Both the position numbers and the translations under genes were made by a program. Shown here piece after piece: positions 11,080 to 52,072 of a stretch of DNA of 64,000 nucleotides (the first letter of the stretch is position 1; every line of letters starts with the position of its first letter). Source of the DNA: an uncultured Oscillospiraceae bacterium (GTDB lineage Bacteria; Bacillota; Clostridia; Oscillospirales; Oscillospiraceae); NCBI GenBank assembly GCA_947632155.1, contig CANROF010000002.1:9892-73891 (forward strand). Reading direction: 5' to 3'. The notes under the pieces were generated by a model. That model did not search any database and was not told the origin of the DNA. It saw nothing but the letters and a program-made list of their open reading frames with translations.

Positions 11080-11091
11080 GGGAGAATGGAT

Positions 11092-11745
11092 ATGCGAAAA
11101 TATGACATGCTTCTCTTCGACTTGGACGGGACGCTGACGGACTCCGCCCCGGGGGTATATAACGGCTTCTGCCGGGCGCTTCGGAGCCTGGGGATGGAGC
11201 CCCCGGAATTTCAGGATTTCAAAAAATGTATGGGCCCGCCGCTCACATACTCCTTCAAAAATTTCTTCGGCCTGGAGGGAGAGCGGCTGGAGGCGGCCAA
11301 GCGCGTCTACCTTGAGTACGCCGCCGCCCGCGGATACGCCGAAAACAGCCTGATTCCCGGCGTGGAGGACGCCCTCCGGCGTCTCAGGTCCGCCGGGTAC
11401 ACCCTGGCCATGGCCTCCACCAAGGCCCAGGAGCAGTTGGAGAGCGTCGTCCGGCGCTTTGCGCTGGGGCAGTATTTCGACCTTCTGGCCGGCTCCCTGG
11501 ACGACAGTGGCCGGCAGAGCAAAGCCGATGTCATACGGTACATCGTGAAAGCACTCCCCATCCCCGACCTCTCCCGGGCCCTGATGATCGGCGACCGGTA
11601 CTTTGACGTGGACGGCGCCCGGGAGTGCGGCATCGAAACCCTGGGCGTCCTCTATGGCTACGGCTCGGCAGCCGAGCTCGCCTCCGCCGGTGCCCTCCAC
11701 CTCTCCCCCACCCCCGCCGACGTGGCGGCCTACCTGGGAGCATAA
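11092..11745 (+). CDS. HAD-superfamily hydrolase (phosphoglycolate phosphatase-like)
   Basis: Motif I FDLDGTLTDS and motif IV GDRYFDVDGA. ATG 11092 has better RBS spacing (GAGGGAG) than 11086. Confidence 0.85.
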   Translation: MRKYDMLLFDLDGTLTDSAPGVYNGFCRALRSLGMEPPEFQDFKKCMGPPLTYSFKNFFGLEGERLEAAKRVYLEYAAARGYAENSLIPGVEDALRRLRSAGYTLAMASTKAQEQLESVVRRFALGQYFDLLAGSLDDSGRQSKADVIRYIVKALPIPDLSRALMIGDRYFDVDGARECGIETLGVLYGYGSAAELASAGALHLSPTPADVAAYLGA

Positions 11746-11746
11746 G

Positions 11747-11785
11747 AAAAAAACCGCCGCGCTGTCAAGCGCGGCGAGGTTTTAT
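11747..11785 (+). terminator. terminator after the HAD gene
   Basis: A-run, then CCGCCGCGC-TGTCAA-GCGCGGCG, then AGGTTTTAT. Confidence 0.7.
11754..11777 (+). repeat. 24-nt direct repeat, copy 1 (terminator hairpin CCGCCGCGC-TGTCAA-GCGCGGCG)
   Basis: Identical 24-mer at 12192-12215. Confidence 0.9.
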
Positions 11786-11817
11786 AAATAACGAATGGAT
11801 TCCCGCGACGTTTTTTG

Positions 11818-11846
11818 TTGACATACGCCGCGTTTCATGATAACAT
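11818..11846 (+). promoter_or_regulatory. promoter of the small-peptide (toxin) mRNA
   Basis: TTGACA, 17 nt, then TGaTAACAT. Confidence 0.6.
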
Positions 11847-11946
11847 TATGTCAACCGCGCCCGAGGGCATGAAAATGAGCGCGGTTGGGAAGCTTGCCAG
11901 GACGTTCAGGCGGTGCGTTCCTCCGGTCATCGGAGGAAGCTTCTGG

Positions 11947-11972
11947 CCTCCTCCGTTTTTCATGGGAGGAGG
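11947..11972 (+). promoter_or_regulatory. SD-sequestering hairpin in the toxin leader
   Basis: CCTCCTCC (11947-11954) pairs with the SD GGAGGAGG (11965-11972). An alternative partner, GGAGGAA, lies at 11932-11938. Confidence 0.6.
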
Positions 11973-11984
11973 TGTTGTTTACGG

Positions 11985-12089
11985 ATGGTTACTTATGAGG
12001 GCCTTTTTGCCTACACCATGGCGATAGTGGCTGTTGTCACCCTCGTCATTGTGCTATTGCAATACATCCATAAAAACAACAAGAAGTAA
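11985..12089 (+). CDS. 34-aa hydrophobic peptide, candidate type I toxin (holin-like toxin type)
   Basis: Absent from the ORF track because it is under 60 aa. Sequence MVTYEGLFAYTMAIVAVVTLVIVLLQYIHKNNKK: one TM helix and a Lys-rich C-terminus. SD GGAGGAGG at 11965-11972. It has its own promoter and terminator and a convergent antisense promoter. Confidence 0.6.
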   Translation: MVTYEGLFAYTMAIVAVVTLVIVLLQYIHKNNKK

Positions 12090-12125
12090 CCGCCAACTGG
12101 CTCAAAGCTTGCGGTTACTTCTTGT
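12070..12125 (-). terminator. terminator of the candidate antisense sRNA
   Basis: 15-bp perfect stem (12079-12093 / 12111-12125) followed on the minus strand by TGTTTTTAT. Confidence 0.65.
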
Positions 12126-12172
12126 AACTGTCTAACGAGGAACCACCGTCTAACGGCAGCTTCCCCTTTGTG
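12070..12172 (-). ncRNA. candidate cis-antisense sRNA (type I antitoxin-like) convergent with the 34-aa peptide gene
   Basis: Bounded by a perfect TTGACA-17-TGtTATAAT promoter (12206-12178) and a 15-bp hairpin plus TGTTTTTAT on the minus strand. It overlaps the ORF 3' end and its 3' UTR. Not tested experimentally. Confidence 0.55.
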
Positions 12173-12177
12173 CCCTC

Positions 12178-12206
12178 ATTATAACAAATCTCCGCCGCGC
12201 TGTCAA
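12178..12206 (-). promoter_or_regulatory. perfect consensus promoter for the antisense sRNA
   Basis: Minus strand reads TTGACA-GCGCGGCGGAGATTTGT-TATAAT: 17-nt spacer and a TGn extended -10. Confidence 0.7.
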
Positions 12207-12215
12207 GCGCGGCGA
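12192..12215 (+). repeat. 24-nt direct repeat, copy 2
   Basis: Identical to 11754-11777. Its loop TGTCAA is the -35 (TTGACA) of the antisense promoter. Confidence 0.9.
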
Positions 12216-12226
12216 ATGTTTTTTCA
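12192..12226 (+). terminator. terminator of the toxin mRNA (duplicate hairpin)
   Basis: Same hairpin followed by AATGTTTTTT. Confidence 0.65.
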
Positions 12227-12547
12227 TACTGATCCCTGATTAAAAGCTCATACTAATATTCATTTAAAATAAGGCACCGAGCGGCGAGAATTTTTCGTGT
12301 CAGGCAAGGAAGACGCCGCAGGGAATACTTTGTGTATTCCCAAGGCGGCTGACGCAGCATGGCGCGAAAAAGTCCGCCGCAAATGGCTTATTTTAATTGA
12401 ATATTAGTATCAAACCGAGCGGCGAGGATTTTTCGCGTCAGACGAGGAAGACTGCGCAGGGAATACTTTCGTATTTCCAAGCAGGCTGACGAAGTATGGC
12501 GCGAAAAAGTCCGCCGCGAATTTGAGATTTTGATCAGGGATTAGTAT
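12226..12547 (+). mobile_element. 161-bp foldback MITE, subtype B (ends ATACTGATCCCTGATTAAAA / TTTTGATCAGGGATTAGTAT), split by a nested subtype-A copy
   Basis: 24 nt (12226-12249) plus 137 nt (12411-12547) make 161 nt. This is colinear with the intact B copy at 23269-23429. Confidence 0.8.
12250..12410 (+). mobile_element. 161-bp foldback MITE, subtype A (ends ATACTAATATTCATTTAAAAT / ATTTTAATTGAATATTAGTAT)
   Basis: Near-identical to the copies at 17398, 36105 and 51768. Inserted inside the B copy. Confidence 0.85.
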
Positions 12548-12564
12548 CACCCCTATGGCATCCC

Positions 12565-17355: not shown

Positions 17356-17397
17356 GTTTTTTTGTGAAAACCGACAAAAATCCCGGGCAAAACGTTT

Positions 17398-17558
17398 ATA
17401 CTAATATTCATTTAAAATGAGACACCGAGCGGCGAGGATTTTTCGTGTCAGGCAAGGAAGACGCCGCAGGGAATACTTTGTGTATTCCCAAGGCGGCTGA
17501 CGCGGCATGGCGCGAAAAAGACCGGCGCGAATGGCTTATTTTAATTGAATATTAGTAT
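17398..17558 (+). mobile_element. 161-bp foldback MITE, subtype A
   Basis: Terminal inverted repeats plus a shared core (CCGAGCGGCGAGGATTTTTCGTGTCAGGCAAGGAAGACGCCGCAGGGAATAC...). Confidence 0.85.
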
Positions 17559-23268: not shown

Positions 23269-23429
23269 ATACTAATCCCTAATCAAAAACTCCAATTCGC
23301 GACGGTCTTTTTTGCGCCATGCTTCGTCAGACGGCTTGACAATACATACAGTATTCTCTGCGCCGTCTTCCTCGCCTGACGCAAAAAATCCTCGCCGCTC
23401 GGTTGGCGTTTTTAATCAGGGATTAGTAT
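23269..23429 (-). mobile_element. 161-bp foldback MITE, subtype B (reverse orientation)
   Basis: Ends ATACTAATCCCTAATCAAAA / TTTTAATCAGGGATTAGTAT. The core matches the family in reverse complement. Its last base is part of the LCP stop codon. Confidence 0.85.
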
Positions 23430-28654: not shown

Positions 28655-29556
28655 GACAGCAGCGCCTCCGCGAATTCCTCCGGGTCAAAGGGGATGAGGT
28701 CGTCGGCCTGCTCGCCCACGCCCACGTACTTCACCGGTACGCCCAGGCGCGTGGTGATGGCGAAGACGATGCCGCCCTTGGCCGTGCCGTCCAGCTTCGT
28801 GAGGACTATCCCCGTGAGCCCGGCGGACCTTTTGAATTCCTCCGCCTGCATAAGGCCGTTCTGGCCCGTGGTGGCGTCCAGCACCAAAAGCGTCTCCCGG
28901 TCCGCGCCGGGCAGCTCCCGGTCGATGACGCGGCTTATTTTATTGAGCTCGTTCATGAGATTCGACTTGTTGTGGAGCCTCCCGGCGGTGTCCACGATGA
29001 TGACGTCCGCGCCCCGGGCCTTTGCCGCCGAGATGGCGTCGAACACCACGGCGGCGGGGTCGGAGCCCTCCTCATGGCGCACAAAGTCCGCGCCGGAGCG
29101 CTGCGCCCAGATGCCAAGCTGCTCCGCGGCGGCGGCCCGGAAGGTGTCCCCGGCGGCCAGGAGGACCCTTTTGCCCTCCCGGCCCAAGGCCATAGCCAGC
29201 TTTCCGATGGTGGTGGTCTTGCCAACGCCGTTGACGCCCACCACCAAAATGACGGAGGGCTTTGTGGTGAGCTTTAAGCTCTCCGGCTCCCCCAGCATCC
29301 CGGTGAGGATCTCCCTCAGCGCCCCGCGGACCTCGTCTCCGCCGCGGAGGCCCCGGGCCTTCACCACGTCCCGGAGCTCCTCCACCGCGTCCATGGACGC
29401 CTGGGCCCCCACGTCGGACAGAATAAGAAGCTCCTCCAGCTCCTCAAAAAACTCCTCGTTCTCCCCGGTAAAGGAGGCGATGGTGGAGTTTAATTTGTTG
29501 GTCATGTTCTGCTTAGTGCGCGAAAGCCCCTCTTTGATCTTATTGAAAAAACCCAT
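28651..29556 (-). CDS. ftsY: signal recognition particle receptor FtsY
   Basis: NG domain: VVGVNGVGKTTTIGKLA, DTAGRL, TKLDGTAKGG. ATGA overlap with rdgB. Confidence 0.95.
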   Translation of the reverse strand: MGFFNKIKEGLSRTKQNMTNKLNSTIASFTGENEEFFEELEELLILSDVGAQASMDAVEELRDVVKARGLRGGDEVRGALREILTGMLGEPESLKLTTKPSVILVVGVNGVGKTTTIGKLAMALGREGKRVLLAAGDTFRAAAAEQLGIWAQRSGADFVRHEEGSDPAAVVFDAISAAKARGADVIIVDTAGRLHNKSNLMNELNKISRVIDRELPGADRETLLVLDATTGQNGLMQAEEFKRSAGLTGIVLTKLDGTAKGGIVFAITTRLGVPVKYVGVGEQADDLIPFDPEEFAEALLS

Positions 29557-36005: not shown

Positions 36006-36104
36006 AAGTCGGTGTTCAACGGATTTTCTTCAAAAAAACATTGTTTTATTGGAACGTGTTCAAAATTGCAGAAACCCTGCCGCTCGCGGAGCCAAAACGG
36101 TCTT

Positions 36105-36265
36105 ATACTAATATCCATTTAAAAGAAGACACCGAGCGGCGAGGATTTTTTGTGTCAGGCAAGGAAGACGCCGCAGGGAATACTTTGTGTATTCCCAAGG
36201 CGGCTGACGCCGCATGGCGCAAAAAAGGCCGTCGCGAATGTCTTATTTTAATTGGATATTAGTAT
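36105..36265 (+). mobile_element. 161-bp foldback MITE, subtype A variant
   Basis: Ends ATACTAATATCCATTTAAAAG / ATTTTAATTGGATATTAGTAT. Its last base is part of the radical-SAM gene stop codon. Confidence 0.85.
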
Positions 36266-51715: not shown

Positions 51716-52072
51716 CCAAATTCAATATTTTTTGCGGGGCTCTGCCTCGCAAAAAATCCCTTTTATCATACTAATATCCAATTAAAATAAGACATTCGCG
51801 CCGGCCTTTTTCGCGCCATGCGGCGTCAGCCGCCTTGGGAATACATACAGTATTCCCTGCGGCGTCTTCCTTGCCTGACACGAAAAATTCTCGCCGCTCG
51901 GTGTCTCATTTTAAATGGATATTAGTATCAAATCCGGTGTGCCCGGCCCCTGCGGGGCCGGACGCGCCGGATTTGACAGCAGAAAGGCCCGGACCGAATT
52001 CCGCAGAATTCGATCCGGGCCTTCCGCACGCATCCCCTTGGCATTTGAAGCCCCGCAAAGCGGGGCTTCAAA
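51716..52072 (-). repeat. family-C modular intergenic repeat, copy 3, interrupted by a MITE (51768-51928)
   Basis: 51929-52072 carries modules H1, H2 and H4; 51716-51767 carries the linker, H3 and the terminal TATTGAATTTGGG. Confidence 0.78.
51768..51928 (-). mobile_element. 161-bp foldback MITE, subtype A (reverse orientation), inserted into a family-C repeat
   Basis: The core is present in reverse complement. The flanks on either side are the two halves of family-C copy 3. Confidence 0.85.

Follow-up and report, generated by a model that had tools for sequence, protein, structure and literature searches.

The 64,000-nt window analyzed here, the whole stretch of DNA taken from a contig of an uncultured gut Oscillospiraceae bacterium, contains a chromosomal intergenic region at about 11754-12226, with a UvrD/HAD gene pair on one side and a MATE efflux gene on the other. 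A 34-codon open reading frame (ORF) on the plus strand lies in this region, together with a promoter and leader in front of it, a convergent promoter behind it and several hairpins. The region is best read as a type I toxin-antitoxin (TA) cassette similar to bsrG/SR4 and of the BsrG/TxpA (Pfam Hol_Tox) kind, and we put the probability of this reading at roughly 0.8. The design is known and the cassette is a fresh example of it, not a new kind of system and not a new principle. An earlier note, made from the letters of this DNA alone, had described a functional type I TA locus. All of the sequence features that it listed were found in place, and its reading is supported by purifying selection, by homology through relatives, by a conserved antisense promoter and by conserved structures. 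We infer that the cassette is functional.

The toxin ORF (MVTYEGLFAYTMAIVAVVTLVIVLLQYIHKNNKK) extends from the ATG at 11985 to the TAA at 12087-12089, and the 34 codons claimed by the earlier note (ATG 11985 to TAA 12089) could be read directly from the sequence. The peptide starts with the motif MVTYEGLF, has hydrophobic residues at positions 7-26 that would form one transmembrane (TM) helix, and ends in an HKNNKK tail. Its close relatives were P0001 (88% identity), P0002 (82%), the loci L001-L003 and the locus L004 in a rabbit-gut Oscillospiraceae metagenome-assembled genome (MAG). Across these relatives pN/pS was 0.09-0.24, and the third codon position accounted for 12/16, 19/24 and 12/17 of the differences from the window ORF. 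Homologues with conserved nucleotides and a frame broken by frameshifts or stops, which the earlier note had named as evidence against the ORF, were not seen among the relatives, where pN/pS was about 0.1. By these substitution patterns the 34-aa ORF is a real coding gene under purifying selection that has gone unannotated. An in-frame extension to 58 aa from the GTG at 11913 was rejected: it was not conserved among the relatives because leader indels that are not multiples of three break the frame. No record of the exact window peptide was found. On contig L105, which carries the identical HAD gene and flanking genes, the gene caller left the toxin ORF uncalled and gave a 42-aa ORF on the opposite strand (11835-11963, minus strand), overlapping the toxin leader. 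This 42-aa ORF is almost certainly a mis-annotation, since the 34-aa toxin ORF was missed by the gene caller.

The family to which the peptide belongs surfaced solely through degenerate peptide patterns. A search with the 34-aa peptide against every representative protein gave only two matches, tblastn with it against GenBank phages gave none, and an exact DNA pattern matched only one genome. The degenerate patterns recovered 59 metagenome loci and 41 viral-contig loci from IMG/VR. The peptides encoded by all of these approximately 100 loci were 25-42 aa long, began invariantly with MVTYE[GA]LF and had one hydrophobic helix and, in most cases, a basic tail; the ATG and the stop were conserved despite very different nucleotide sequences. 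Among 52 family members, 39 matched Hol_Tox (PF16935) at E<=0.01. Ten relatives were scored singly, and two of them passed the gathering cut-off of 23.3 bits (33.0 and 25.4 bits). BsrG of B. subtilis (MTVYESLM...SSQKKK, sequence checked in phage SPbeta) scored 34.5 bits on the same model. The window peptide shares the features of the superfamily, i.e., a length of about 25-60 aa, an N-terminal M-x-x-[YF]-E-x-L, one TM helix and a basic C-terminus. It thus probably belongs to the TxpA/BsrG superfamily as a divergent peptide, by transitive homology only. Because relatives reach the Hol_Tox gathering score and BsrG matches too, the resemblance to txpA/RatA and bsrG/SR4 would be homology, beyond analogy. 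The likeness to holin-like toxin peptides pointed out by the earlier note was borne out by Pfam score for the relatives, which match Hol_Tox; the window peptide itself stays below the cut-off. Peptides annotated as 'holin-like toxins' have been described as TxpA-family members, and TxpA-like genes have been seen in Clostridiales (Fozo et al., 2010, PMC2887945).

Two further observations concern the distribution of the family. In more than 30 human-gut viral contigs from IMG/VR (L072-L104) there was a subfamily with the peptide MVTYEGLFTFCLVIIGVISLF[HQY]NKK. The peptides differed at residue 22 alone (H, Q or Y) and the flanks were nearly identical, which suggests that these contigs carry the module on a common prophage lineage. 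Tandem cassettes spaced 400-730 nt apart were present in other metagenomic or viral contigs (L002, L026, L040, L065 and L066), those of L002 being located at 783-887 and about 1037-1243. Several copies in tandem are a usual feature of type I TA loci.

Both promoters proposed by the earlier note were present. The sense promoter (11818-11846, plus strand) consists of a -35 TTGACA at 11818-11823, a 17-nt spacer with a TG-n element and a -10 TAACAT at 11841-11846; it scored 10/12 plus TG in a consensus scan, and the predicted transcription start is near 11853. The antisense promoter (12206-12178, minus strand) has its -35 TTGACA at 12206-12201 and its -10 TATAAT at 12183-12178, again with 17 nt and a TG-n, and it scored 12/12. 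Three promoter-like sites occurred in the region, compared with 0.8 +/- 0.8 in shuffles; the observed features are far beyond chance. The -35 hexamer of the antisense promoter is at the same time the loop (TGTCAA) of the toxin mRNA terminator hairpin, which the earlier note had overlooked. The position of the antisense promoter was conserved across the family. For 63 related cassettes whose flanks were complete, we took the highest-scoring minus-strand promoter that follows the ORF: it scored 11-12/12 in 40 of them and 9-10/12 in 16 more (56/63 at >=9/12), nearly always with a 17-nt spacer and mostly with the -10 edge 78-95 nt past the stop. As a control, the plus strand was scored over these regions and mostly gave 7-9. 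In cassettes of the L072 type, the TTGACA and a correctly spaced -10 were kept though the -35 lies outside the mRNA terminator. The related cassettes also displayed a promoter at the place equivalent to the sense promoter.

The predicted antisense antitoxin RNA is about 107 nt long (12171 to 12065, minus strand; z = -5.65), its ends being deduced from the promoter and the terminator. The sequence to which it is complementary takes in the final ~25 nt of the ORF, the hairpin at the stop codon and 12137-12171 in the 3' untranslated region (UTR). Its predicted terminator (12070-12125, minus strand) consists of a hairpin with a perfect 15-bp stem (12079-12093 with 12111-12125, i.e., 12125-12111/12093-12079 on the minus strand) followed by the U-tract UGUUUUUAU, which confirmed the hairpin and tract given by the earlier note. 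The tract is the minus-strand reading of ATAAAAACA (12070-12078) and is templated by the His-Lys-Asn codons of the toxin. In every representative of the family a hairpin stands right after the stop and is preceded by Lys/Arg codons that read as a minus-strand U-tract. The toxin mRNA has a terminator of its own on the plus strand, CGCCGCGC-TGTCAA-GCGCGGCG; its hairpin at 12193-12214 is followed by a T-run at 12219-12224 and is therefore assigned as the toxin mRNA terminator.

A very similar hairpin, CCGCCGCGC-TGTCAA-GCGCGGCG with a T-rich tail (11754-11784, plus strand), is located behind the HAD-like gene (11086-11745). It terminates this gene and probably insulates the toxin promoter. The two hairpins share an exact 24-nt direct repeat, CCGCCGCGCTGTCAAGCGCGGCGA (11754-11777 and 12192-12215), within 37 nt that are 84% identical overall. 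With the duplicate hairpin at 11755-11776, a unit of ~440 nt is bracketed by one and the same terminator. Upstream, the homology between the window and L001 continues as far as an equally placed hairpin with an identical stem, so the unit appears to carry terminators on both sides. Two-sided terminators fit the insulation of a dangerous promoter as well as a history of movement or tandem duplication. The upstream copy also yields a minus-strand promoter-like site (TTGACA 11768, 18 nt, TATGCT 11739; 10/12), and this site at 11768-11739 faces the 3' end of the HAD gene.

The predicted toxin mRNA (11853-12226, plus strand; ~374 nt) had a minimum free energy (MFE) of -160.9 kcal/mol (z = -8.1). 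Its Shine-Dalgarno (SD) sequence lies 12 nt before the AUG and is trapped in a 9-bp helix between the anti-SD GCCTCCTCC / GCCUCCUCC (11946-11954) and the SD GGAGGAGGT / GGAGGAGGU (11965-11973). The SD core is GGAGGAGG (11965-11972) and its complement is CCTCCTCC (11947-11954). The SD trap proposed by the earlier note was thereby recovered. A pyrimidine anti-SD partner paired with the SD in the local fold of 29/29 representatives, and the SD-helix pairs were 100% paired in an alignment of 11 transcripts (A2).

In the minimum-energy fold of the full mRNA, 11874-11923 paired with 12137-12180 through 44 long-range pairs, and this 5'-3' clamp, here called P1, is the dominant predicted structure of the mRNA. 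The gain in the window was about -21 kcal/mol over the best fold without P1. The earlier note had missed P1. It had described three leader hairpins, which compete with P1; the SD helix was retained and the first two were absent from the full-mRNA fold. The 5' half of P1 contains an AGGCGGU at 11908-11914 and the 3' half, located in the 3' UTR, an ACCGUCU at 12145-12151. The alternative TTCCTCC/GGAGGAA partner of the earlier note (11918-24 with 11933-39) is present, and it belongs to a local hairpin GUUCCUCC/GGAGGAAG (11917-11940) that formed only once the 5' half of P1 was released, in masked or leader-only folds. A switchable SD trap was not upheld, because the SD stayed paired in both modeled states. 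A relay switch, in which the 3' UTR GAGGAAC takes the leader UUCCUCC, so that the released GGAGGAA captures the anti-SD and the SD opens, with the antisense RNA reversing this, was likewise ruled out as a thermodynamic prediction. The unpaired probability of the SD was 0.006 in the free mRNA and 0.008 with the antisense target 12065-12171 masked; SD pairing was already maximal in both states, and masking refolded the leader with GUUCCUCC/GGAGGAAG. The thermodynamic model thus predicts no direct effect on translation. A trans contact of the antisense RNA with the leader and translation initiation region (SprA1-like) was also rejected (-60.7 kcal/mol, shuffles -59.3 +/- 5.3).

P1 was found throughout the family. 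All 29 representatives had 14-45 long-range pairs in the full-length MFE structure, with a median gain of -19.2 kcal/mol. The leader:3' UTR duplexes had mean energies of -50.4 kcal/mol for cognate and -35.0 kcal/mol for non-cognate combinations, and leader and 3' UTR were mutual best partners in 17/28. Judged from these sequences, the leader and the 3' UTR co-evolve. RNAalifold on A2 independently predicted the long-range helix, the SD helix, the stop-codon hairpin and the terminator around the -35. In these helices 94.8% of the alignment cells were paired compared with 40-58% for slid partners, and compensatory changes were found at 15 pairs compared with 1-6 in the slid controls. Such changes were observed in P1, in the SD helix and in the terminators, with the stem of the mRNA terminator varying around an invariant loop. 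Covariation by itself cannot tell leader:3' UTR pairing from a resemblance between the leader and the 5' end of the antisense RNA, because that RNA exactly complements the 3' UTR. The AGGCGGU / ACCGUCU pair (A2 columns 56-62 and 305-311) was invariant in the 11 transcripts except for one G-to-A change in L029, and its neighbors covaried; GGCGG-like motifs recurred in other subfamilies. The conservation of this pair exceeds what pairing requires.

Together these elements suggest the following mode of action. The sigma-A-type promoter at 11818-11846 would give an mRNA of ~374 nt that ends at the hairpin 12193-12214 with its U-run and encodes a 34-aa single-pass membrane peptide. This mRNA would be silenced, and probably stabilized, by the 9-bp SD trap, by the long and suboptimal 12-nt SD-AUG spacing and by P1, which buries the 5' region. 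The convergent promoter at 12206-12178 would produce an antisense RNA of about 105 nt, ended by the stop-codon hairpin and the Lys/Asn-templated U-tract. Pairing with 12065-12171, including most of the 3' half of P1, would create a duplex of ~105 bp as a substrate for RNase III and strip the 3' strand from P1, upon which the leader would refold into local hairpins with the SD still trapped. The outcome would be a toxin mRNA that is degraded and remains untranslated. By analogy with bsrG/SR4 and txpA/RatA, both transcripts would be made, the peptide would be toxic at the membrane and the mRNA would undergo RNase III-dependent decay; the decay of the duplex in particular would follow from the ~105 nt of perfect complementarity, as in these systems (PMC3834814, PMC6563280). 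As the SD stays paired when the target is masked, control is predicted to act mainly through mRNA decay and not through a switchable SD trap.

Several results weigh against the TA reading. The Pfam search proposed by the earlier note succeeded through the relatives and failed for the window peptide itself, which scored 7.2 bits on Hol_Tox (E = 6.4, cut-off 23.3), and the NCBIfam toxin models gave zero matches to it. In a comparison of the family profile with BsrG by hhalign, the first 8 residues alone were aligned, at 6% probability; membership is therefore unproven by score, and such a short alignment is expected for such short TM peptides. The Rfam model of BsrG (RF01412) found the SPbeta locus with 210 bits as a positive control and matched neither the window, even at E<=10, nor nine related loci. 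The covariation rests on 11 sequences from about four clades, so that independent events are few, and in the thermodynamic model masking of the antisense target slightly opened the AUG with SD accessibility unchanged. Finally, certain small proteins that resemble Hol_Tox or neighbor it, B. subtilis YhzE-2 among them, have an antisense RNA and yet proved non-toxic, YhzE-2 in its native host (Fozo et al., 2010, PMC2887945). The last case leads to the most serious rival, an antisense-regulated small membrane protein that is not toxic and has a physiological function, sharing ancestry and layout with type I toxins. Overproduction is needed for many type I 'toxins' to be toxic (PMC2887945), the window peptide is a Hol_Tox outlier and strong purifying selection would suit any functional peptide. 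We nevertheless consider such a protein quite unlikely, since the layered silencing by SD trap, clamp, a perfect and constitutive-looking antisense promoter and flanking terminators is typical of dangerous genes, the homologues BsrG, TxpA and EF3263 are experimentally toxic (PMC2887945, PMC3834814), and a multi-copy or tandem arrangement and occurrence on phage contigs are typical of TA modules.

An antibacterial peptide of the holin- or bacteriocin-like type (Tmp1-type), used for lysis or competition, with the minus-strand promoter as a mere by-product of the terminator loop, is very improbable. In its favor, Hol_Tox takes its name from holin-like antibacterial peptides, and a Clostridium pSOL peptide is 41% identical to the antibacterial protein Tmp1; in one locus, a -35 inside a terminator loop could indeed be a coincidence. 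But the TTGACA and its correctly spaced -10 are kept from one subfamily to another, also where the -35 falls outside the terminator as in the L072 type, the stop-codon hairpin with its minus-strand U-tract makes sense only as the terminator of a minus-strand RNA, and a signal peptide is lacking, as are nearby genes for immunity, export or an endolysin. That the ORF arose by chance within a structured non-coding region of terminators and repeats is scarcely credible. The region is rich in hairpins and repeats, and gene callers skipped the ORF in favor of the 42-aa one on the other strand; these points are outweighed by the pN/pS of ~0.1, the third-position bias, the invariant MVTYE[GA]LF, the ATG and stop kept over ~100 loci and the Pfam matches of relatives, which effectively refute a chance origin.

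A bolder extension of the type I TA reading would see in the cassette one copy of a mini-module of ~470 nt, self-contained and insulated by terminators, which travels between intergenic chromosomal sites and the phages of gut Clostridia. The leader and the antitoxin would then compete for one 3' UTR strand, the antitoxin would mainly unlock the clamp, and AGGCGGU/ACCGUCU would be a specific recognition site for an RNase or a protein. The mobile module is suggested by the same-hairpin borders, the 50% GC in a 63% genome, the lack of synteny and the tandem copies elsewhere; the extension as a whole we regard as unlikely. If true, it would define an RNA architecture that spans the family and has yet to enter Rfam, as well as a mechanism beyond that shown for bsrG/SR4.

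The GC content was 50% for the cassette, 41.9% for the ORF and 63.4% for the 64-kb window. By its composition the cassette appears foreign, and it showed no synteny with its relatives. The cassette of L001 sits between an MGDG synthase and a Mur ligase gene. The L004 cassette is located on a contig other than that of the HAD orthologue in the same MAG, and a putative tRNA gene follows that orthologue. In the related MAG GCA_947628265.1 (L109, 3700-3830), a tRNA-like gene, judged by eye, with a promoter-like sequence stands after the HAD orthologue in place of the cassette. Insertion into an otherwise conserved site was considered, as the HAD gene of relatives is followed by a putative tRNA gene or by a short spacer, and was rejected; the flanks of these relatives differ as well, so non-synteny is shown and a clean empty site is not. 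A second cassette was not found within the 64-kb window, where a weak match at 29480 proved to be antisense inside ftsY. No known RNA family in Rfam matched the window at the gathering cut-off, with noise only at E<=10.

Directly after the cassette there are two tandem copies (12226-12549) of a dispersed palindromic element, about 160 nt in length, whose terminal inverted repeats are AT-rich (ATACTAATATTCATTTAAAATAAG...). Six copies occur in the 64 kb, the others at 17390-17558, 23269-23403 (minus strand), 36102-36265 and 51768-51928 (minus strand). Their mean identity was 82%, and each copy folded into one long hairpin (MFE -83 kcal/mol, z = -11). The element had no Rfam match and looks like an intergenic repeat of the MITE/REP (miniature inverted-repeat transposable element/repetitive extragenic palindromic) type.

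Annotation systematically misses type I TA modules, and here a spurious 42-aa ORF on the wrong strand was called instead. To our knowledge, hardly any type I systems have been described in Clostridia outside C. difficile. A 2019 review noted TxpA-like genes only in C. bolteae. Judging by the window locus and its ~100 relatives, the BsrG/TxpA design occurs widely among gut and termite-gut Firmicutes and in the phages of these bacteria, and its RNA architecture, including P1 and the reuse of Lys codons as antitoxin terminator, has been kept although the nucleotides have turned over completely. A covariance model for annotating such modules could be seeded from the alignment. The value of the locus lies in the annotation and in the family-wide conservation of P1, and to specialists it will be unsurprising.

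Among known systems, Tmp1 and the 'putative holin-like toxin' family (PF16935) resemble the window locus in their short single-TM Firmicutes peptides, and PF16935 is the Pfam family of most relatives of the window peptide. Tmp1 differs in being described as antibacterial and holin-like, with no antisense partner mentioned in the paper drawn on here, and the window peptide is below the threshold of the family. In par (fst/RNA II), the direct repeats DRa/DRb give 5' complementarity and a bidirectional terminator is common to both RNAs. A par-type system was rejected, as the window RNAs have separate terminators and their 5' modules are alike, not complementary. In hok/Sok (E. coli plasmid R1) and aapA1/IsoA1 (Helicobacter pylori), a 5'-3' long-distance interaction keeps the full-length mRNA inert (PMC3834814), similar to the clamp in the window. 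However, their antisense RNAs hit the 5' or translation initiation region and their mRNAs become active through 3' trimming, while the window antisense RNA would target the 3' partner of the clamp, and their toxins are unrelated to the window peptide. The hok/Sok-type fold-back class was rejected for the window, where the antisense gene is at the 3' end and the antisense:leader duplex was no better than shuffles.

According to Fozo et al. (2010, PMC2887945), the toxins of txpA/RatA (B. subtilis skin) and EF3263 (E. faecalis) belong to the same superfamily. In both systems the antisense RNA reaches over the 3' end, and that of EF3263, at ~110 nt, is similar in length to the predicted window antisense RNA (PMC2887945). 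The mechanism of txpA/RatA is RNase III-dependent mRNA decay (PMC6563280). Unlike the window cassette, these are Bacilli loci in mobile or skin elements, and TxpA is longer than the window peptide, about 59 aa.

The closest counterpart is bsrG/SR4. Probing of bsrG mRNA indicated that nt 1-35 pair with nt 232-262 (P1) and that the SD is in a helix (Jahn and Brantl, PMC3834814). SR4 is complementary to the 3' half of this P1; once SR4 has bound, nt 1-33 become free, the SD helix grows from 4 to 8 bp and RNase III-dependent decay sets in (PMC3834814). When the bsrG locus of SPbeta was read directly, we found the same part order, a hairpin immediately past the stop and Lys codons, CAAAAGAAAAAATAG, that give the U-tract of the convergent RNA. 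Both loci thus have a small single-TM peptide with an M-x-x-Y-E-x-L start and a Lys-rich tail, an SD helix with an upstream pyrimidine stretch, a long P1 between the 5' end and the 3' UTR, a convergent cis-antisense RNA complementary to the 3' end of the ORF and to the 3' half of P1, and an antitoxin terminator hairpin past the stop with a U-tract templated by Lys codons. They differ in that SR4 (180 nt) starts beyond the bsrG terminator and covers it, while the window antisense RNA would start upstream of the mRNA terminator with its -35 in the terminator loop. The SD helix has 9 bp in the window and 4 bp in free bsrG, and no extra tightening is predicted for the former. The window host belongs to high-GC Clostridia and the cassette has a chromosomal site, whereas bsrG resides in prophage SPbeta; there is no nucleotide-level similarity, and only the window peptide falls below the Pfam cut-off. 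Three hallmarks of a bsrG/SR4-type system were recognized in the window, namely an antisense promoter with its own terminator for the predicted transcript, a P1 with a complementary antitoxin and a sequestered SD.

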